Positions 1 to 9,024 of a stretch of 23,048 bases of DNA are shown one piece after another. The translations under genes were made by a program, and so were the position numbers. Source of the DNA: a virus (Duplodnaviria; Heunggongvirae; Uroviricota; Caudoviricetes); the IMG/VR virus record IMGVR_UViG_3300033119_001367. One strand, written 5' to 3'. Each line of letters opens with the position of its first letter. The stretch's first letter is position 1. A model generated the notes under the pieces. That model did no database searches and was not told the DNA's origin. It worked only from the letters and a program-made list of their open reading frames with translations.

Positions 1-728
1 TCAAATAAATAAGTACATATACCTCCATTATTTAACTCTACAAAATTCTCATACCTATCATCTACAAATATATCTATACCACTTTTCTTAGCAACTTCTA
101 CTTTACTTTCCCCAAAACCAACACTGTATACAGGCATAGTAGGGAAACCATTCTTATCTATCCATTCTTCAGTCCACTCTTTTGGAATACTCCTTGAAGT
201 TATATAACAATGTGGCTCAAAGTTAATATCTGAAGGTTTAGTTTTTACAGGTATGGACAGCCAAAAATCTTTATCATCTTTTAAAGAATCAAATTTAGCC
301 TTTATATCCCTGTCAAAATTCCATGTTTCAGGCACTTCCTGAGAATGATGTTTAGTCCAATGTCCTACCCAATCTGCCAGTACCTCATCTATATCTAACC
401 CTATCTTAGGTCTATTTAGATAATTGTGCCTTCTATCATCAAATTGTGGAGCTATTTTATAATAAGCACTTAAAAAGTGAGCATTACATTGTAAATGATC
501 TATATGTTTTAAACCACTTTCCAAATCAAAATCTTCCCCTCTTTCAATAGCTGCTAAATGTCTCTTCATAGAGGCTATAGTAGAACTCCATGAAAGTCCT
601 TTTTCCCAATTCCTAGCCTCATATTTTGTTGCCCCAAAGCTTAGTACTTCTACTAAGCCTTGTTGAGCAACTGGATGAATTAAATCATACCTTAATTTTC
701 CTTGATTAAATCTTATTCCACTATCCAT
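1..728 (-). CDS. DUF5664 (dATP/dGTP diphosphohydrolase N-terminal-like) domain fused to a HAD-family 5'-nucleotidase-like domain; 3' end truncated by the window edge
   Basis: Not in the ORF track; translated by hand from ATG at 728: MDSGIRFNQGKLRYDLIHP...FGATKYEARNWEKG...RHL...GEDFDLESGLKHIDHLQCNAHFL (DUF5664-type motifs), then IGLDIDEVLAD (HAD motif I) and FVDDRYEN (HAD motif IV). The frame stays open to position 1. Confidence 0.85.
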   Translation of the reverse strand, partial: MDSGIRFNQGKLRYDLIHPVAQQGLVEVLSFGATKYEARNWEKGLSWSSTIASMKRHLAAIERGEDFDLESGLKHIDHLQCNAHFLSAYYKIAPQFDDRRHNYLNRPKIGLDIDEVLADWVGHWTKHHSQEVPETWNFDRDIKAKFDSLKDDKDFWLSIPVKTKPSDINFEPHCYITSRSIPKEWTEEWIDKNGFPTMPVYSVGFGESKVEVAKKSGIDIFVDDRYENFVELNNGGICTYLF

Positions 729-731
729 ATT

Positions 732-968
732 TTATTGTAATTTTATACTTGATTCTAAAAAGTCAATATGTGCATATCCTTTAGTAGTATGAACTCTAAC
801 TTCATTTCTATCTTCTACAGCTTCAAATGCTAATATCTCTGCATCACCAGCTTCTTTATCTTGGTGTTCAACTCTATCTCCCACTACCCATGTTTCTCCA
901 TATGAACTAATTGCAGATTTCTTATCTACACTAATATAATTTGTTTTTACTCTCATATATTTACCCAT
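732..968 (-). CDS. hypothetical protein, possibly a small SH3-like barrel (VGDRVEH)
   Basis: 78-aa ORF tightly packed between neighbours on the coding strand. Confidence 0.7.
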   Translation of the reverse strand: MGKYMRVKTNYISVDKKSAISSYGETWVVGDRVEHQDKEAGDAEILAFEAVEDRNEVRVHTTKGYAHIDFLESSIKLQ

Positions 969-1335
969 ATTTTTCCATTAATTTAAAGCATTCTTTAAAA
1001 CCTTCTATTTCACATTCTTCCCTTTTCAAAGTACCTATACCAGTACTATCAAATACATCTATACTCTTATACCTTACTTGCCAAGACCAACCATGCATTT
1101 CATCTGGTCCATCTACTAGTAAGAATATACCCTGCTCGTCAAAGAAATGGTATAAAGACCTGAAATTCTGATTTAGAATATTAGCAGCTCCTAACTCTAC
1201 TATTCTATCTGTAATCTCAGGAGCTTGTGTCTCTGGAACATCCTTAAGAAGTTCCTTTTGTAACTGTAATAACCATTTCTTTACATGCTCATAAAATATC
1301 TCCTTACTTTTTGGATAATCTTTTAAATCTATCAT
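961..1335 (-). CDS. hypothetical protein
   Basis: 124-aa ORF with short overlaps to both neighbours (ATGA overlap at 1332-1335). Confidence 0.75.
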   Translation of the reverse strand: MIDLKDYPKSKEIFYEHVKKWLLQLQKELLKDVPETQAPEITDRIVELGAANILNQNFRSLYHFFDEQGIFLLVDGPDEMHGWSWQVRYKSIDVFDSTGIGTLKREECEIEGFKECFKLMEKYG

Positions 1336-1877
1336 ATCAATTTACTTTTTGTTTCTTCATTAAATATCTCACGGTCTTCGTAGAATTGCCAATGTTCATC
1401 TAAATCTGTTAAATCCAGGTCATATAATTTCTTCCAAAAAGATTTTAAATACTGGCTTTTTCCAAATATATGATGTGGTAATGTAGTTACCAAAGTACCC
1501 TGAGAATTGTTTGTTTTTCTTGGTATTTCCCTTTTATATGGTTCAGAAACCTCTGAGAATTTACCTGTCATAATAATATCTATATCTTCTTGCCATTGTT
1601 CATGGAATTTATAAACAAGCATAGTCCACCCATCAGGATAATCATACTCATCTATTAGATATTTTCTTTCTCTTTCTGCTTCTACAAATTCATTAAAAGC
1701 AGTGATGTCCATAGGTCTAAACAATAAATATACAGCATTCTTGTAATCCATATCCTTTATCTCATCTTTCATATAGGCATTTTCAAACCCATGTTTCCAT
1801 AAATCTTTAAGACTTAATTTAAGAATAGGAACTACGAATATACTAGTAGCTGTTAATTTTAAAAACTCATTCGCCAT
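1332..1877 (-). CDS. hypothetical phage protein downstream of the exonuclease
   Basis: 181-aa ORF with an AT-rich start context (ATTATG). Confidence 0.8.
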   Translation of the reverse strand: MANEFLKLTATSIFVVPILKLSLKDLWKHGFENAYMKDEIKDMDYKNAVYLLFRPMDITAFNEFVEAERERKYLIDEYDYPDGWTMLVYKFHEQWQEDIDIIMTGKFSEVSEPYKREIPRKTNNSQGTLVTTLPHHIFGKSQYLKSFWKKLYDLDLTDLDEHWQFYEDREIFNEETKSKLI

Positions 1878-1885
1878 AATACAAA

Positions 1886-2956
1886 TTAAAGATTAACAAT
1901 TCCTCCAGCTTCAAATGCTGATTTACTAATATTCCATATTTGATTCTCCTGACACCATAGAATATCATTTATAATTTCAAAAACACCTTTGTATTCTCTT
2001 TCATTTTCTATAAAACCTCTCTCTGCTTTATCCAGGTCTTCTACAGTCATTTTATACTGTAGAGGTCTGTAAAAACAACCACTATGAGCTACTATAAAGA
2101 TTGGTGGAAGAATTTCATACTCACTATAGTCAAATCCTAAATCTAATACTCCTGACATTAAAGCTCTCCAGTAGATATATCCCTGAATATAAGCCTGTTT
2201 TTTCAGCCAGTATTCCCTTTTAAAGTTTACAACATCATATACAAATTTTAAATCATATATCTGTATAGTTTTATTATTGTGGTCTACTACAATCCTATCC
2301 AGCATAGCTTTCATTTCTAAACCTTCTACTGTAAAGCCCTCAATTTGTTGTTCATTAAAATACTCACATCCTTCTCTTTCTTCAAAGATAGGACCAGTAA
2401 ACTCATCTTGCATTATTAAAGAAACAGCTTTCTCTGCTATAGTAATATCATCCACGCAACATATTTGTAAATTCCTACTTCTAGCTTCTCTTAATTGGTT
2501 ATAGTACATTTCTGGTGTTTCACCATTATTTTTATTAGGTTTAGTAAAATTTTCTAATACCTTTTCCTTGGATATTTTATACCCACTATCTATATAAGCT
2601 AAATCAACTAAATTAGAAAATTCCTCAGTCACTATCCCATTTTCATCCATATTACTAACTGTATGCTTATATAAGGATTCTGTAAATACAAGCATATTTG
2701 CAGTTGGTGGATTTGTACAAGTACTCATGTAAAACTTACTATCAAAATTTTCAGGTTCTAATAGTAAATTATGTCCCAAGCTTCCAATTAGCAAAGCAGG
2801 ATTATATTCATCTTCCTGTCTTGTCTCAGATTTTTCTATTTTAGTTTTAAAAAACTTTTTTCTATCTATACTAAATTCTCTAAGATCACTAGATGATAGA
2901 TAGTCTAACTTTCTATATTCTTGTTCTGATCTGTTTACTTTTTTCTCCCCCGTCAT
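1886..2956 (-). CDS. PD-(D/E)XK exonuclease (RecE/exonuclease VIII, DUF3799-like)
   Basis: YLSSSDLREF, LLIGSLGHNLLLEP, KAMLDRIVVD and IYDLK nuclease motifs, plus QAYIY. Confidence 0.8.
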   Translation of the reverse strand: MTGEKKVNRSEQEYRKLDYLSSSDLREFSIDRKKFFKTKIEKSETRQEDEYNPALLIGSLGHNLLLEPENFDSKFYMSTCTNPPTANMLVFTESLYKHTVSNMDENGIVTEEFSNLVDLAYIDSGYKISKEKVLENFTKPNKNNGETPEMYYNQLREARSRNLQICCVDDITIAEKAVSLIMQDEFTGPIFEEREGCEYFNEQQIEGFTVEGLEMKAMLDRIVVDHNNKTIQIYDLKFVYDVVNFKREYWLKKQAYIQGYIYWRALMSGVLDLGFDYSEYEILPPIFIVAHSGCFYRPLQYKMTVEDLDKAERGFIENEREYKGVFEIINDILWCQENQIWNISKSAFEAGGIVNL

Positions 2957-2959
2957 AAT

Positions 2960-3649
2960 TTAATTTTTAATTCTTTTATATATTTTATAGGAATCATAGT
3001 TAGATTTTCTAACTGGAATATAATTACCTATTTTATAAAAACCCTCTACTCTCTTATTATTCTTAAGAGATATTATAGCTAAAGACCCTCTTTTTAACCC
3101 TGTCACTTCACAAGCTTCTATAATAGATCTCCATTCTCCATAGAAAGATCCATCCAAATGTAATAATACAATAGCTTCCCCTTCTTTATTTCTTTTATTC
3201 TCTTTACACCAATCTAAATATTCCTTTTTATAAACCACAGGATTTTTTAATTTAGTTAATCTTCTCTTTTCTAAATCTTCCTTTGTCCTCTTTTTCCCAG
3301 TTTGAGACTTTGACATTTTAGCTCTAGTTTCAGCAGAATGAGTTATAATTCCTTCAGGACTAGTTGGTTGAATATTATATCCAAACTTCCTATTATGTGT
3401 ATTTAATATATTACACCAATAGTGTTCCTCAGAAGCTAGAAATTCTGCTTTACATTCAACTAGAATTTCAAATAGAAAATTTGTTTCTCCGTCCCTATTA
3501 AAAGATCTTTGCAGATGGATATTACCATGTGTATTAGAGTTTAATCTACTTATATGATCATTCCATCTCATTTGTATATGAGTAGCATAACCAACATAGA
3601 TCTTTCCATTTATGATATTTGTTATAGTATATATTCCACAATTACCCAT
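2960..3649 (-). CDS. free-standing GIY-YIG homing endonuclease with a NUMOD3-type DNA-binding repeat
   Basis: CGIYTITNIINGKIYVG, RWNDH, E...E and YN motifs, and HSAETRAKMSKSQTGKK. ATG at 3649 preferred over 3673 because it overlaps the upstream stop. Confidence 0.9.
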   Translation of the reverse strand: MGNCGIYTITNIINGKIYVGYATHIQMRWNDHISRLNSNTHGNIHLQRSFNRDGETNFLFEILVECKAEFLASEEHYWCNILNTHNRKFGYNIQPTSPEGIITHSAETRAKMSKSQTGKKRTKEDLEKRRLTKLKNPVVYKKEYLDWCKENKRNKEGEAIVLLHLDGSFYGEWRSIIEACEVTGLKRGSLAIISLKNNKRVEGFYKIGNYIPVRKSNYDSYKIYKRIKN

Positions 3650-4037
3650 GTTCAAAATCGCAATTAGCTTCAAATTTTTTAACTAAGAATGTCCTAGTAG
3701 GAACTTCTATAAAATTCCATGTTTCCTCTACATTATCATCCCAATCAGGAGATTCTTTATTAAGAATAATCCTATCTATTTCCTCAAACTTTTCCGCTAC
3801 GGTATATCCCATAACACCGCAATAATGATTGGATTTTTCACAAAATCTCTTTTTACCATCTAACCATAGATTCCATATTCTCATATATTCTCTCCTGGAA
3901 ACTACTAATATACAAGGAAAATCGGACTCACTATTCTCATTTGGGTAACCATGTGTTTCTATATGAACTTGCTTCCCAAAAACTCCCAAAACTTTATCCT
4001 CACTCGGGTCAAAAAACAATACTAAATCTTTATTCAT
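3642..4037 (-). CDS. hypothetical protein, first gene after the promoter at 4056-4086
   Basis: 131-aa ORF; ATG 18 nt after the TAnnTTTG element. Confidence 0.75.
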   Translation of the reverse strand: MNKDLVLFFDPSEDKVLGVFGKQVHIETHGYPNENSESDFPCILVVSRREYMRIWNLWLDGKKRFCEKSNHYCGVMGYTVAEKFEEIDRIILNKESPDWDDNVEETWNFIEVPTRTFLVKKFEANCDFEHG

Positions 4038-4055
4038 AATCTTTTAATTTAAATA

Positions 4056-4086
4056 CAAAGATAATATAGAATTCCGATATTTCCAA
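4056..4086 (-). promoter_or_regulatory. Bacteroidota sigma70-type promoter (-33 TTG, 20-nt spacer, -7 TATCTTTG)
   Basis: Minus strand reads TTG GAAATATCGGAATTCTATAT TATCTTTG TA; intergenic and upstream of an ATG. Confidence 0.75.
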
Positions 4087-4101
4087 GAATTCTATATTAT
4101 C
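4060..4101. repeat. perfect 15-bp inverted repeat with a 12-nt spacer overlapping the promoter; possible intrinsic terminator for upstream minus-strand transcription
   Basis: GATAATATAGAATTC (4060-4074) / GAATTCTATATTATC (4087-4101); followed on the minus strand by TTTGTATTT. Confidence 0.85.
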
Positions 4102-4107
4102 AAATTG

Positions 4108-4146
4108 TTAAGCTTCACTTCTTACTTCTTTCTTTTCTCCTGTCAT
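4108..4146 (-). pseudogene. 12-codon stub MTGEKKEVRSEA*, a remnant duplicate of the exonuclease N-terminus
   Basis: 9/12 identity to MTGEKKVNRSEQ at 2921-2956, with the same AAATT-ATGAC start context. Confidence 0.75.
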
Positions 4147-4149
4147 AAT

Positions 4150-4416
4150 TTATAATTTTATCCATTTACCATCCCATTCTATTCCATCTTTATACCAGAG
4201 TCCTTTTCTCTGAGTAATATTAGCTCTTAATTGATTTAATCTGTCTTTTGTTACATTTGTAAAATAACCAGCATTTGTTATATAGATTTCTCCATGCATA
4301 GTAAATTCTGCTATTTTATTACCATGCAAATATAAGCAATAATCCAGACTTTCATCATTTCTTACCTTTTTATTATTACCTTTTAAAAAGGCTTTTATAA
4401 CACTTTCTCCTGCCAT
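4150..4416 (-). CDS. conserved-looking phage hypothetical protein (YLHGNKIA / T.VTKDRLN type)
   Basis: 88-aa ORF; start overlaps the upstream stop (TAATG). Confidence 0.75.
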   Translation of the reverse strand: MAGESVIKAFLKGNNKKVRNDESLDYCLYLHGNKIAEFTMHGEIYITNAGYFTNVTKDRLNQLRANITQRKGLWYKDGIEWDGKWIKL

Positions 4417-4853
4417 TATTCATGAATTTTACCTTTAAAAAATTTACCACCTACATTTCCATTATAACAATCTTGTCTGAATAAGACATTATTATTAATC
4501 ATATAAACTATTTCCCAATAGGATAATGATGCCTTATCCTTGCACAATTTAAGAATAGTTCTTCTAAACCCATTAGTATTTCCTCTTTCTTCTATATATT
4601 TTAACAATTCTTTACAACTTCCCCAGTAATCCAGCCATTTAGAATCCTTTACTCCTCTTTCTATTCTTTTCCTTGTTCCAGAAACTACTCTGGCTCTCTT
4701 AGAGAGTACCTTTTTGGTCTGATGAAGAAATGCTTTCTTACCAAAATATGATTTGCCCTTATCGTCATATATTACATATATAAAACCATAGTAACCTTCT
4801 GGTGGTTCATATAAACATTCTCCATTGTAGTACCAGCAATCATCTTTTATCAT
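4416..4853 (-). CDS. compact GIY-YIG family nuclease
   Basis: YGFIYVIY...KSYFGKK, WLDYWGS, F.R.ILKLC, YWE and YNGN; no C-terminal DNA-binding repeats. Confidence 0.75.
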   Translation of the reverse strand: MIKDDCWYYNGECLYEPPEGYYGFIYVIYDDKGKSYFGKKAFLHQTKKVLSKRARVVSGTRKRIERGVKDSKWLDYWGSCKELLKYIEERGNTNGFRRTILKLCKDKASLSYWEIVYMINNNVLFRQDCYNGNVGGKFFKGKIHE

Positions 4854-4856
4854 ATA

Positions 4857-5042
4857 TTATTTTTTATCTTTACCAAAATACTCTTGTTGACTTTCCATAG
4901 GAAAATCTCTAAAATCTCCATCATTAGATTGAGGAGGATTACCAGTAAGACTAGATATTATACCTTTACCATTACAAGTAGGACATTTAGTATAATCTAA
5001 CTTTTTCCCTGTTCCATTACAAATTGGGCATTTTTGATACAT
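4857..5042 (-). CDS. small DnaJ-type zinc-finger protein
   Basis: Two CxxCxGxG repeats (CPICNGTG, CPTCNGKG). Confidence 0.75.
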   Translation of the reverse strand: MYQKCPICNGTGKKLDYTKCPTCNGKGIISSLTGNPPQSNDGDFRDFPMESQQEYFGKDKK

Positions 5043-5299
5043 TATTTCTTAATTTTTATGTAATTTAATATTCCTTTTACATTCTTCCACCCAGTTTCTA
5101 GTAGTAATAAACAAGATACTCCACCATGAATATCTATCTTTAGTCTACCTTCATTATTACCATATCTCCTACCTTCATGGGTAAACTGGAATTGAACCAT
5201 AGGTTTCTTATACTCTACTGGTTTTTTTTTCTTTTTCATTACCCCTGAGAAACTGTCTATCTCATTTTTATTCTTAGGTTTTTGTTTTCTCTTCCTCAT
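5042..5299 (-). CDS. basic hypothetical protein
   Basis: 85-aa Lys-rich ORF in the operon orientation. Confidence 0.65.
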   Translation of the reverse strand: MRKRKQKPKNKNEIDSFSGVMKKKKKPVEYKKPMVQFQFTHEGRRYGNNEGRLKIDIHGGVSCLLLLETGWKNVKGILNYIKIKK

Positions 5300-5317
5300 T
5301 ATAATATTTAAATTTAC

Positions 5318-7342
5318 TTATTTTGATTCATACCAGTTTGTACCTATATTAGCAGAAGCTTTCATAAATAAATCCTTATTAACTAATAACTTATTACCTT
5401 CTTCTATCATAGAATATTCTAAAATTTCAGCATATTCTTTTGTTAAATGCTTTTGAGTTTCAAGATTTATCTCATCATGCACAACTAAAGCTATCCTGGC
5501 TTTCCAAAAATCCTTTTTCTTCCAAATATGCTCATATACTCTATTAGTAGCAGCTTTAGTTTGTAAAGCAGCCTTAGTTTGTGTTGGATTATTTAAAACT
5601 AATCTAAAATATTCCCCTTTTTTCTTAAAATATTGACTAACATTATAAGCATTTTGAGAATATAGAGCATAAGCACTTTCATTTTGAACTTTGTATTCTG
5701 CATCTTTTTTTAGTTCCTTGTGCTCATTTTTACCTTTTCTATACTCAGTCCACCAGCTACTACTTAGACTTTTAATCCATTTATGATTCTTTTTAAATTC
5801 TTCAAAATAAGGCAATTGTAATTTCCAGCCCAAAGCTGACTCAATATATCCCAATTTTATTGCTTCTTCTAATTTATTGTTCCCATAAGTATAAATACCT
5901 GCATGAAGTTCTTTATATGCATTTTCTATATGCATGGCTTCTTCCAAACTAATCCCTTCTTTTTGACTCAAAGTATAAGCTCCTCCACCAAATTGGAAGG
6001 TAAATCTGGGAGCTTTGGATGCTTGTCGTTTATCTTTATGGTTTTTAATAATTTCTTCATCTGTTAAATCTTTAATTTCAGGATATAAAACTCTAGCAAA
6101 GGCACAGTGTAAACAACTATTATTAATAACACTGCTAACCATAGCAGCATCCCCTGTATTATCAGCTCCTGTAACCCCTTCCTGAGCACTATAATCTGCT
6201 ACTATGTAATCAAATCCTTCTTTAGCTTCAAAAGGTCTTCTACTTTTCTCATTGGCCGGGATATTTAAAGTATTCACATCATTTACTTCTGTTTTATCTC
6301 TGTTTTTACCTCCAGCAGAAATCCTTGCAGTATCTAATATAGGCTTATAACTAGTATACAGTCTACCTTCATATATATTCTTATAGAATGATTCTCCAAA
6401 TGTAGTAACATCATGCTTAATAGATTGATAATCAAGCCACAAATCTACAAATTCATGTTTAGTCTTTTTTATCACATCTTCTGCTACTGATTTACCTGTA
6501 GCTGCATCAGGATTTTCCACATTAATTCCTAATTTCTCAAAAACTTCTATCATTTGAGCGGAACTAGTAATTAATAGATCTAAATCTACTCCGTCTGATT
6601 CAAATAAAGAAAATTGTTTTTTTCTGTATTCTGGTAATTTATCAGCAATATATTGCTTAATTATATTTTCCTTAAGTTTAAGCTCTTTTTTGTCATTATC
6701 ACATTTTTCTTGCCATTTCTGTTCATTTATAGGTACTCCACAACACTGCATATAAGCACAAGCCCTAATCCATTTACAATGCAAATTATATACTTGAACA
6801 AAACTTTTTTGTACAATTTGTTTATGTAAACAATCTGCTAAATTTAATAATTTATCCACATCATTAAAGCAGTACTGGATAGCTTTATCAGTACTTAATT
6901 TGATTTTAGCAATGTTTTTTTGCTCTGATTTATCATAAATTACTCCTAATTCTTCTTCCATAACAGTACCAAAATCATGCCTTTTCATAACCAGACCATT
7001 ATACATAATCTTTCTTGCCAAGAAAGTATCTCTTACCTTCCAAGGAAAAAAGTTATGTTTATATAACCAAGTAAGATCAAATAAACTATTATGCATAACT
7101 AGTATCTTATTCTCAAGATAAGGTAAAACCTCTTTAATATTGATACTTTCTAAGTCTATAAGATAGTTATTAGTCCCAGTACCTATTTGTATAGCAAACA
7201 TATCTCCTTTATAGAACTTTAAGCCAGTAGTTTCACTATCATAACTAATAGTCTTAGGTAGAATCATCTCTGTTAAATCACAGTATTTATACTGTCCTAT
7301 ATTATCAAAATAGTTTTTTCTGTTAGTTATTATAAAATTCAT
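5318..7342 (-). CDS. polA: family A DNA polymerase (3'-5' exonuclease + polymerase, no 5'-3' exonuclease domain)
   Basis: ExoI YDSETTG, ExoII HNSLFD, ExoIII YCFND, motif A ADYSAQE, motif B RQASKAPRFTFQFG, motif C VVHDEI. Start placed at MNFIIT (7342) because the promoter occupies the upstream in-frame stretch. Confidence 0.95.
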   Translation of the reverse strand: MNFIITNRKNYFDNIGQYKYCDLTEMILPKTISYDSETTGLKFYKGDMFAIQIGTGTNNYLIDLESINIKEVLPYLENKILVMHNSLFDLTWLYKHNFFPWKVRDTFLARKIMYNGLVMKRHDFGTVMEEELGVIYDKSEQKNIAKIKLSTDKAIQYCFNDVDKLLNLADCLHKQIVQKSFVQVYNLHCKWIRACAYMQCCGVPINEQKWQEKCDNDKKELKLKENIIKQYIADKLPEYRKKQFSLFESDGVDLDLLITSSAQMIEVFEKLGINVENPDAATGKSVAEDVIKKTKHEFVDLWLDYQSIKHDVTTFGESFYKNIYEGRLYTSYKPILDTARISAGGKNRDKTEVNDVNTLNIPANEKSRRPFEAKEGFDYIVADYSAQEGVTGADNTGDAAMVSSVINNSCLHCAFARVLYPEIKDLTDEEIIKNHKDKRQASKAPRFTFQFGGGAYTLSQKEGISLEEAMHIENAYKELHAGIYTYGNNKLEEAIKLGYIESALGWKLQLPYFEEFKKNHKWIKSLSSSWWTEYRKGKNEHKELKKDAEYKVQNESAYALYSQNAYNVSQYFKKKGEYFRLVLNNPTQTKAALQTKAATNRVYEHIWKKKDFWKARIALVVHDEINLETQKHLTKEYAEILEYSMIEEGNKLLVNKDLFMKASANIGTNWYESK

Positions 7343-7347
7343 AACTA

Positions 7348-7378
7348 CAAATTTAAGGAAGTATACCTGAATAAACAA
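7348..7378 (-). promoter_or_regulatory. Bacteroidota-type promoter for polA (-33 TTG, 20-nt spacer, -7 TAAATTTG)
   Basis: Minus strand TTG TTTATTCAGGTATACTTCCT TAAATTTG TAGTT ATG; lies between rIIB and polA. Confidence 0.7.
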
Positions 7379-7388
7379 GTATACTTCC
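7357..7388. repeat. perfect 10-bp inverted repeat with a 12-nt spacer overlapping the polA promoter
   Basis: GGAAGTATAC (7357-7366) / GTATACTTCC (7379-7388). Confidence 0.8.
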
Positions 7389-7396
7389 AATTTAGT

Positions 7397-8779
7397 TTAA
7401 ACTTTAACAACTCTGTTACCTATAACACTGATCATATCCACAATTTCCTGTACTTCTGCATGGCTAATAGGTACTTCTTCCTCCTGGCACTTAATTACAC
7501 TATAATCCCTTTCTTTTAAAGCTTCCTGTAACTCTTCAACAGAGTAAGCATGGTATTGTTCATCAAAATGTACTATATCTACATCTTCATCCATATACTT
7601 ACCATCTTTTTCCTCTATTACAGCAGCTATAAACATCTCACTAACCCTCATCTTATTACCATCATAAATAGGTACACTTCTGATTTTAGCAGGATTTACA
7701 AGGCAGAGAACTTTTGTATCACCAAAACTTCCAATTCCAAAACTTCTGGAACCCACATGTAATCCACTACTACAATCTTGTCTGCTATCTACATCTACTT
7801 CTTCTTCAGCTATAGCATATACTTGTCCAATTCTAATATCCATACTATGGGTATGAGCATCTGTATACCTGTTTTCTTCTAAAGAACCTAAATTATTATA
7901 TAACTCCTGTAGATTGCCTTTAGAAATCTTTCTACCATCATCTTCAGAATTTATCTTACCCAATGAGTATTCCCCATCTTCTTCTAAAACACAGTAATTA
8001 GCAGGAGATTTCTTCCACTTTTTAACTTTAAAATACTCTGTAGAAACAAATTTACTCAATTCTTTGTCACTTTCTCCTACAGATACTATACCTCTATACA
8101 TGATAAGATTGCCAAGAGAAGTTATCCTTATATTTTGATTCCTGATAAACTTAAGAGCATCTTCTCTACTACTTTGTATAGGATTTAAAGCTAACTTTAA
8201 AGTAAATAGTTTTAAAGAAGTGTATTGAGTCATAAGGTCTTCATACTCTTTTCCATCATATAGTGGTTCTACCCATGCGTGATTCATTTTCTCTACAACT
8301 TCTATAAAAGCAGCTACTATAACTGCTGGTAAAGGCATAGAAAGCTTTTTAAGATAGATTTCTCCATTCTTAACTTCAAAATCTGCATGTTTTTCTAAAC
8401 AATTCCATTCCCTTCTAACTAACTCTTTTTCCTGTTTAGTTTCAATTTCCTTTGTGTTTATAACAACAGTTTCGTTTGGTAAGAAAAGTTCTATGATACT
8501 ATCTACTGTATAACAGTTCTTTACCTTCTCATAAAACTCTTTTCCACCTTCACTATTACTAAACAAAGTACCATCATGTAAGGTTACAATTACAGTTTTA
8601 TCTATAATCATAAGCTTTTTATACAGTTTTTGTTTAATTTCCTGTTCTTTTCTTAAATCTCCATCCACAGCTTCAATCTGTTTTTCTATTAATGTACCTC
8701 TTGCTTCTTCATTTTTTACCTGTTGGTCAAGAAGTCTTTTTCTTTTTGGGCTTAACAGCCAGTCAAAATTAAAATTCAT
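7397..8779 (-). CDS. rIIB: rIIB-like protein
   Basis: LALNP..SSREDALKFI, ITSLGNLIMYR and the DCSSGLHVGS motif; downstream of an rIIA-like gene. Confidence 0.8.
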   Translation of the reverse strand: MNFNFDWLLSPKRKRLLDQQVKNEEARGTLIEKQIEAVDGDLRKEQEIKQKLYKKLMIIDKTVIVTLHDGTLFSNSEGGKEFYEKVKNCYTVDSIIELFLPNETVVINTKEIETKQEKELVRREWNCLEKHADFEVKNGEIYLKKLSMPLPAVIVAAFIEVVEKMNHAWVEPLYDGKEYEDLMTQYTSLKLFTLKLALNPIQSSREDALKFIRNQNIRITSLGNLIMYRGIVSVGESDKELSKFVSTEYFKVKKWKKSPANYCVLEEDGEYSLGKINSEDDGRKISKGNLQELYNNLGSLEENRYTDAHTHSMDIRIGQVYAIAEEEVDVDSRQDCSSGLHVGSRSFGIGSFGDTKVLCLVNPAKIRSVPIYDGNKMRVSEMFIAAVIEEKDGKYMDEDVDIVHFDEQYHAYSVEELQEALKERDYSVIKCQEEEVPISHAEVQEIVDMISVIGNRVVKV

Positions 8780-8781
8780 AA

Positions 8782-9024
8782 TTAGTATATTTCTGTTTGT
8801 TTATTATTTTTTAATTCCTGTATATCTTTATGCCTTTCTTCTAATTCATCTCTTAAATCATCTATTTGCCCTTTTAAATCGTCTATTTCACACTCCAAAT
8901 CATATATTTTAGAATCCTTATCACTTACTTTATCTTGAAGATCTGATATAGTTCCTTCAAAACTCTCCATATCTGTACCCATATCTTCTACAAGAGCTAT
9001 TATATCTCTTTTATAATTAGGCAT
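8782..9024 (-). CDS. acidic coiled-coil protein ending in TEIY
   Basis: Heptad pattern ISDLQDKVSDKDSKIYDLECEIDDLKGQIDDLRDELEE. Confidence 0.7.
   Translation of the reverse strand: MPNYKRDIIALVEDMGTDMESFEGTISDLQDKVSDKDSKIYDLECEIDDLKGQIDDLRDELEERHKDIQELKNNKQTEIY

Follow-up and report, generated by a model that had tools for sequence, protein, structure and literature searches.

How does a free-standing homing-endonuclease gene come to lie between two unequal copies of the start of another gene? This question is raised by a locus in the Caudoviricetes virus record IMGVR_UViG_3300033119_001367, of which a stretch of 23,048 nucleotides (nt), hereafter the window, was analyzed as a whole; within positions 1-9000 of this stretch every gene is carried by the minus strand. 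An intact gene of mosaic composition for a PD-(D/E)XK-type exonuclease (DUF3799/exonuclease VIII-like; 356 amino acids, aa; 2956-1886), whose product starts MTGEKKVNRSEQ, is preceded at some distance by a 12-codon open reading frame (ORF), MTGEKKEVRSEA*, with its ATG at 4146 and its stop codon at 4110-4108. TAAATT precedes both ATGs, and 22 of the first 33 nt are identical between this stub and the exonuclease gene, a resemblance that an original prediction made from the window alone had pointed out; between them lie a 15-bp palindrome, a 131-aa ORF and a GIY-YIG ORF. The prediction read this arrangement as a homing-endonuclease cassette that had split the 5′ end of the exonuclease gene and supplied it with a recoded N-terminus. 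Comparison with related contigs supports the main part of that interpretation and changes several of its details. The account that we favor, at a probability of about 0.8, is one-sided homing of a free-standing GIY-YIG cassette, with an illegitimate joint on the left and a homologous crossover on the right.

The empty site came to light through exonuclease cluster P0009, one of 77 clusters of homologues and 71% identical overall, which starts with MTGEKKEVRSE, the peptide encoded by the stub. In the contig of P0009 (L015), the 88-aa Gp96-like gene that precedes the stub in the window is followed by the same TAA-ATT spacer as in the window and then by the exonuclease gene, with nothing between them; this is the direct junction of ORF 4150-4416 to an MTGEKKEVRSE exonuclease that the original prediction had anticipated in a cassette-free relative. 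Since the stub sequence is the true exonuclease start in L015, the stub arrangement in the window is more than a chance resemblance. The region of the 88-aa gene is 87.8% identical to L015 604-906, and its final 62 nt, up to window position 4114, are identical (62/62); beyond that point the exonuclease codons go on in L015, and cassette DNA begins in the window. The breakpoint thus lies at 4114|4113, with an uncertainty of 2 nt to either side from an A-run, in good agreement with the predicted insertion near 4111-4113. All 33 nt of the stub match L015, and the stub is identical across all cassette-bearing contigs. By this comparison the stub is evidently the former start of the exonuclease gene, consisting of 11 old exonuclease codons followed by GCT TAA from the first bases of the cassette.

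Presence and absence of the insert vary among relatives at the syntenic site, which is empty in L015, L001 and L016 and filled in the window and in at least six independent contigs from other samples (L011-L014, L017 and L018). L001 and L002, which have a 112-aa gene before the exonuclease, and L016, which has a 68-aa gene there, lack endonuclease, stub and insert, and the complete cassette-free relative G001 (L001) has no member of the 131-aa family. None of the relatives lacking the GIY-YIG gene (L001, L015, L016, L020 and L021) has the stub or the intervening DNA, so that the finding which would have refuted the original prediction did not appear. Two further empty/filled pairs, L021 versus L007 and L020 versus L022, concern other insertion sites and are described below. 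JGI sample 3300033069 yielded both the cassette-free L001 (IMGVR_UViG_3300033069_001022) and the cassette-bearing L011, which makes co-infection and homing possible on ecological grounds. Among INPHARED phages, a blastn search with window 1800-4900 gave no match, and tblastn with the exonuclease gave a sole match to cr108_1, at 26% identity and annotated as a PD-(D/E)XK exonuclease; a scan of viral contigs with the 88-aa protein gave no match.

The functional exonuclease gene proved to be of two origins. Over 2970-2480 its nucleotide identity to L001 and L015 is 55-76%, while downstream its identity to L001 is 80-93%, the profile switching at ~2480-2430. At the protein level, the N-terminal 175 aa have 60-65% identity to the other 76 allele clusters, and 100% to L017, while the C-terminal 181 aa are 93, 92, 88 and 76% identical to P0007, P0006, P0008 and P0009, respectively. 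These profiles indicate that ~530 nt of foreign, apparently co-converted exonuclease sequence (~175 codons; 2956-2427) is linked to the cassette. The native gene end has therefore been kept as a remnant that matches a close relative (33/33 nt), and the working end is a diverged foreign copy (22/33 nt). The original prediction had limited the imported piece to a recoded head of 12 codons, which falls well short of this tract, and the recoding itself is not demonstrably targeted. In codons 2-5 the two copies differ only by synonymous A/G changes at third positions, and the two serine codons differ at all three positions; since the identity of the head (67%) is in line with that of the whole tract (55-75%), these differences are best regarded as ordinary divergence between alleles. 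The tentative family assignment of the exonuclease rests on PHROG 412 ("exonuclease VIII", E 1.6e-13) and on a match to Pfam DUF3799 (PF12684) of 22.4 bits, which is below the cut-off of 26; many of the 77 homologue clusters have PF12684/PF12705.

The foreign tract forms part of a larger block. Over 4424-2427, which comprises the 88-aa gene, the stub, the cassette and the exonuclease 5′ part, the window and L017 differ at 9 positions, and on either side, in the SegE-like gene to the left and the rest of the exonuclease gene to the right, they diverge by 8-14%, with mismatches resuming at 2426. Because this ~2-kb block is near-identical in two otherwise divergent backgrounds, it has evidently moved between backgrounds recently. 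Within the block, the 88-aa gene of L017 (853-1118, equivalent to window 4416-4150) has lost 1 nt, at window position 4354, and is predicted as two short ORFs, suggesting that this gene may be dispensable.

If the cassette is mobile, related copies might be expected at other positions, and two further arrangements were found. In L007 the order is exonuclease gene, a homologue of the 131-aa gene (61%), a GIY-YIG gene and a DUF4031-like 58-aa gene. DNA homology between the window and L007 (71% over 754 nt) begins abruptly at window position 4115 with 27 of 27 identical nt (4115-4089), extends across the 131-aa gene and the catalytic domain as far as the C-terminal part of the endonuclease. In L007 a stub of the 58-aa gene, five codons long, directly adjoins the shared end on its left and also ends in the cassette's GCT TAA; to the right of the cassette stands the full 58-aa gene, with two A-to-G changes in its head, so that the two copies agree at 13 of 15 positions. 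L021 represents the empty site for L007, its exonuclease gene being followed directly by an orthologous 57-aa gene. In L022 and L023 the left end of the cassette is joined three codons before the stop of the exonuclease gene, whose product thereby gains five new terminal residues, and the endonuclease ORF continues in frame at its end into a 27-nt duplicate of the exonuclease tail. Relative to the cassette-free L020, the right flank of this arrangement is 97.6% identical and the left flank 69-76%. L023 has no separate stub, and a 19-nt deletion between short repeats could have produced its left joint from one like that of L007, in which case it is perhaps not an independent event.

Comparison of the three sites bears on how the joints formed. 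The duplicated segments measure ~46 nt in the window, 11-16 nt in L007 and 27 nt in L022/L023. In the window the left copy (4114-4159) comprises ~13 nt 5′ of the ATG and the first 33 nt of the recipient exonuclease gene, and the right copy (2924-2968) the spacer and the first 33 nt of the functional, imported allele. The original prediction had regarded the duplicated end as a device that restores the interrupted gene. This does not hold for L022/L023, and because the duplicate there restores nothing, the duplications appear to be by-products of joint formation. The endonucleases at the three sites share their catalytic domain and have unrelated C-terminal, presumably DNA-binding parts (alignment A2), which fits different target sites. 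The breakpoints of the window and L007 fall inside an AAAAGG motif in the empty-site sequences, and the functional copies that were retained are without it; with two cases this is compatible with target-site immunity and is not proof of it. We also considered an AAAGGA-type motif as a target common to all three sites and rejected it, as the breakpoint at the third site is out of register, leaving a weak hint for two sites only.

The insert in the window spans 4113 to ~2960 and contains a promoter-like leader (4038-4113; 76 nt), the 131-aa gene (4037-3642) and an intact-looking free-standing GIY-YIG/NUMOD3 homing-endonuclease gene (3649-2960; 229 aa). The endonuclease gene forms a cistron of its own, its end lying 3 nt ahead of the exonuclease ATG. 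Its GIY-YIG domain was recognized by Pfam PF01541 (E 6.2e-9; 36.5 bits, cut-off 22.6) and its product by PHROG as "homing endonuclease" (E 9e-29); the NUMOD3 match is borderline, its 20.3 bits being just short of the cut-off of 20.4. Catalytic positions G5, I6, Y7, Y18, G20, R28, E75 and N83 are invariant in alignment A2. The C-terminal 100 aa had no family match, close homologues of the C-terminal half are confined to this phage, and full-length homologues of the window endonuclease were not found past its own cluster. Other GIY-YIG genes, at L015 7548-7938, at L021 3605-4522 and at three sites in G001, stand without the 131-aa gene and have ~70% nucleotide identity in the catalytic domain; the catalytic module thus seems to be widely shuffled in this phage clade.

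The leader combines the conserved left end with a window-specific palindrome and a promoter-like pattern. The palindrome is perfect over 15 bp (arms 4101-4087 and 4074-4060; -18.9 kcal/mol, z -3.95) and was considered as a feature defining the cassette; this was rejected, as the hairpin is found in the window only and is not conserved in L007 or L023. What is kept in the window, L007 and L023 is a TTG (4086-4084 in the window) followed after 20 nt by TAnnTTTG (4063-4056), ~20 nt before the start of the 131-aa gene, a pattern that we take to resemble the Bacteroidota promoter consensus. Since matches to this pattern are not enriched genome-wide (12 versus 7.4 +/- 3.1 in shuffled sequences), we call the leader promoter-like only, and it presumably serves as a promoter. 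A sigma-70 promoter scan gave chance-level results and no terminator-like site was found. Of the predicted cassette-borne terminator and promoter, then, the latter has a conserved candidate, while the hairpin is a local feature. In the 92-kb genome the left-end motif does not recur as a promoter word, and an exact search for it in viral and metagenome contigs returned the L007 contig only, adding no further insertion site.

The 131-aa gene belongs to an unannotated family of ~195 representative clusters, few of which are close relatives of the window member, and its product had no sequence match in Pfam, PHROG or PDB. An AlphaFold2 model (predicted local distance difference test score, pLDDT, 88) gave weak structural matches that were mostly to single-stranded DNA-binding proteins of the oligonucleotide/oligosaccharide-binding (OB) fold. 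Foldseek searches with this model against PDB and BFVD yielded nothing at E <= 0.001, and a VIA wide search, in which many rows were OB folds, reached a best Z of 5.4, under the noise guide of the tool. The prediction that a passenger gene of this kind travels with the endonuclease was borne out in the window, L007, L022 and L009, and the protein may either be carried along or assist the endonuclease. FEHG are invariably the last residues of the 131-aa ORF. In the window (3642-3649) and in L007 (2242-2252) its final codons and the endonuclease start share 8 nt, which suggests translational coupling of the two ORFs; in L009 the family member and the GIY-YIG gene are 12 nt apart. In both L009 and L030 a gene of the family abuts a GIY-YIG gene and stubs are lacking, and in L010 a NUMOD3 ORF lies two genes off. 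In L030, a more distant phage, a 122-aa family member follows a 307-aa GIY-YIG-like ORF and precedes an MT-A70-like (DPPW) methyltransferase gene (1631-3497), with an exonuclease homologue 1.5 kb beyond.

How might such a locus have formed? Under one-sided homing, the cassette would have entered this phage lineage from a diverged donor in which it sat just upstream of the exonuclease gene. The exonuclease gene of the recipient would have been broken ~33 nt after its ATG, near codon 11, presumably by the cassette's own endonuclease, and repaired from the donor. On the right side, repair would have run through the homologous exonuclease sequence and been resolved ~530 nt in, the recipient thereby taking over the donor's N-terminal half as a co-conversion tract, and this imported allele would resist the cut. 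On the left side, the unresected end of the recipient would have been joined to the left end of the cassette by illegitimate joining at the level of microhomology, in the A-run. An illegitimate joint is expected there because the genes upstream of the exonuclease are non-homologous between lineages (the 88-aa gene, the 112-aa gene, the 68-aa gene, or a pair of 110-aa and 88-aa genes). The first 11 codons of the recipient would be left as a dead stub ending in the cassette's own TAA, and the whole block would later have spread between backgrounds by ordinary two-sided recombination or by homing.

Several points weigh against this account. Cleavage by the window endonuclease, and the position of that cleavage, are inferred. 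No donor was found: neither the 77 exonuclease clusters nor the endonuclease homologues include a cassette that precedes this exonuclease gene with no stub, or the foreign N-terminal allele standing alone. In this clade variability is generally higher in the exonuclease region than in the regions beside it, and some of the mosaicism might stem from recombination that has nothing to do with the endonuclease, for example recombination linked to the conserved SegE-like neighbor. In addition, the left ends of the cassette in the window and L007 (and L023) coincide to within 2 nt, even though the proteins are only ~60% identical. Because illegitimate joining at random should not favor one end repeatedly, the process may be more end-specific; the fixed end might be a promoter/operator element or might reflect end-specific joining. 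Carried further, the cassette could be an end-defined mobile element in which the GIY-YIG protein cuts AAAAG|G-like motifs at gene termini, the fixed left end is joined without homology and the adjacent, translationally coupled and weakly OB-fold-like 131-aa protein helps by binding or annealing single-stranded DNA ends. We consider this unlikely, but if true a homing endonuclease would have a pathway resembling transposition, independent of homology and served by a dedicated accessory protein.

The fixed left end would also be expected of a transposon-like insertion that duplicated its target in situ, producing identical copies of 11-45 nt that later diverged, unless one flank was overwritten by recombination with relatives. 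The order copy, cassette, copy is indeed found at all three sites, and the copies in L007 still agree at 13 of 15 positions. However, the lengths of the duplications are widely different (~46, 11-16 and 27 nt), and no transposase or integrase was detected in the cassette by Pfam, PHROG or other sequence matching. In the window, moreover, one copy matches the living L015 allele at 33 of 33 nt and the other lies in a 530-nt tract whose identity to everything else is 60-65%, a pattern of two lineages joined rather than of decay, and we regard target duplication in situ as improbable. The perfect match of the stub to L015, and its identity in all cassette-bearing contigs, could instead mean that it is kept as a useful upstream ORF, with the old ribosome-binding site and ATG, that ends translation from the 88-aa gene just before the promoter or hairpin; such a role would be compatible with an origin by insertion. 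The stub is in frame with the cassette TAA in both the window and L007. Two in-frame cases are nevertheless expected by chance about once in nine, a recent insertion explains an undecayed stub equally well in a 2-kb block that is nearly invariant between backgrounds, and L023 manages without a separate stub, so that selection for the stub appears quite improbable.

Direct repeats such as those flanking the cassette could also support the reverse event, in which the cassette-bearing state is ancestral and the empty sites of L015, L001 and L016 arose by deletion between the short copies. Deletion would leave behind the window-type N-terminal half of the exonuclease, but these three contigs have the common type, and the window type is confined to the window/L017 cluster among more than 70 allele clusters. 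G001 is without the 131-aa gene, and the cassette occupies different sites in different relatives; we give an ancestral cassette very little credence. Least probable of all, to the point of being negligible, is an assembly chimera or misjoin that mimics a duplication. Nothing beyond the general risk attached to metagenomic contigs speaks for it, the same junctions are seen in contigs of JGI and Logan origin, representing five or more other samples and assemblers, and the recurrence of stub and cassette in the independent contigs listed above argues that the arrangement is not an artefact. Set beside these alternatives, one-sided homing remains the explanation that we prefer.

Genes neighboring the cassette were also compared. 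Upstream of the stub, a family-A DNA polymerase gene (690-aa PolA; 7390-5318) is followed by two small ORFs, then by the gene for a SegE-like GIY-YIG protein of 145 aa (4853-4416; Pfam SegE_GIY-YIG, E 2e-20; top PHROG label "NAD synthetase") and by the 88-aa Kyano_Gp96-like gene (4416-4150; Pfam PF23790, E 2.3e-9) that forms the left flank of the insertion. The SegE-like gene keeps its place upstream of the exonuclease gene in every relative examined (L001 5229-5666, L015 2-268, L016 1763-2200, L017 416-853 and L007 1-327), and because of this constant position it looks fixed or domesticated rather than mobile. Between the window and L017 it is ~14% different, right beside the near-identical cassette block. 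The interval from the SegE-like gene to the exonuclease gene varies in content, with a 112-aa gene in L001, a 68-aa gene in L016, genes of 69 and 67 aa in L007 and, between the SegE-like and Gp96-like genes of L015 (268-600), an extra 110-aa ORF of no known family; this interval is, from its gene content, a hot spot for gene swapping. The DNA polymerase region of the window (5283-7355) has no detectable DNA similarity to the corresponding region of L001 (1064-4991), which holds ORFs of 722 and 181 aa, and the flanks are 89-92% identical. It is, on this comparison, a second replaced module nearby.

The closest described anatomy is that of the fungal mitochondrial mORF "gene hybrids", known from atp6 of Allomyces macrogynus and from atp6, atp9, cox2 and nad3 of Glomus, in which a foreign C-terminus together with an endonuclease ORF displaces the native C-terminus, leaving a remnant that matches a sister species exactly (PMC3630166). 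These hybrids were read as horizontal transfer driven by the endonuclease (PMC3630166). As in the hybrids, an endonuclease gene lies near a gene end in the window and the native end has been replaced by a diverged foreign copy. In contrast with them, the window duplicates an N-terminus, as if in mirror image, its host is a bacteriophage and the imported tract extends over ~175 codons. Furthermore, mORF inserts usually continue the frame of the host gene, while the insert in the window is an independent unit of two genes preceded by a promoter-like leader of its own; fusion of the endonuclease to exonuclease sequence occurs in L022 only, through the duplicated tail, and not in the window.

Among phages, the free-standing seg and mob endonucleases of T4-like genomes undergo intronless homing with co-conversion of flanking markers (PMC2988022), and nuclease genes are found at the boundaries of genetic exchange (PMC10448857). 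The GIY-YIG gene of the window resembles them in its position between conserved genes, in its presence/absence polymorphism and in the co-inheritance of a flanking tract, and differs from them in traveling with an unannotated partner gene. In a limited search of the seg/mob literature, no retained stub or duplicated target end was described. For the joints themselves a parallel is the T4 td intron, for which one-sided homing of a laboratory construct, with illegitimate double-strand break repair at microhomologies, has been described and proposed as a route to ectopic sites (1999 work summarized in PMC2988022). The two cases agree in having homology on one side only and a microhomology joint on the other, and differ in that the window would be a natural product, reconstructed from sequence alone. 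"Transposition" of homing endonucleases into genes has been described for mobE in nrdA of Aeh1 and for mobA in the T4 topoisomerase gene (PMC2988022). Like these, the window has a free-standing endonuclease gene inside a coding region that is uninterrupted in relatives. However, mobE and mobA split their host genes into two working polypeptides, while the insertion in the window left a dead stub of 11 codons and a complete gene rebuilt with foreign sequence.

The window is thus a clear and well-resolved natural example rather than a new principle. The routes by which free-standing homing endonucleases reach new sites have so far been inferred mostly from laboratory constructs, and this locus preserves the empty site, the position of the break within 2 nt, the unresected end in the form of the stub, and the co-conversion tract with its end point. 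It also records the same cassette at three gene termini, with the presumed DNA-binding part of the endonuclease swapped each time. The 131-aa family, with its ~195 clusters, is flagged as an unannotated family that occurs repeatedly beside GIY-YIG genes. For the phages concerned, the locus indicates that through a selfish nuclease half of a phage recombination gene can be exchanged for that of a foreign allele, which bears on mosaicism and on gene-tree analyses in uncultured gut-type phages.

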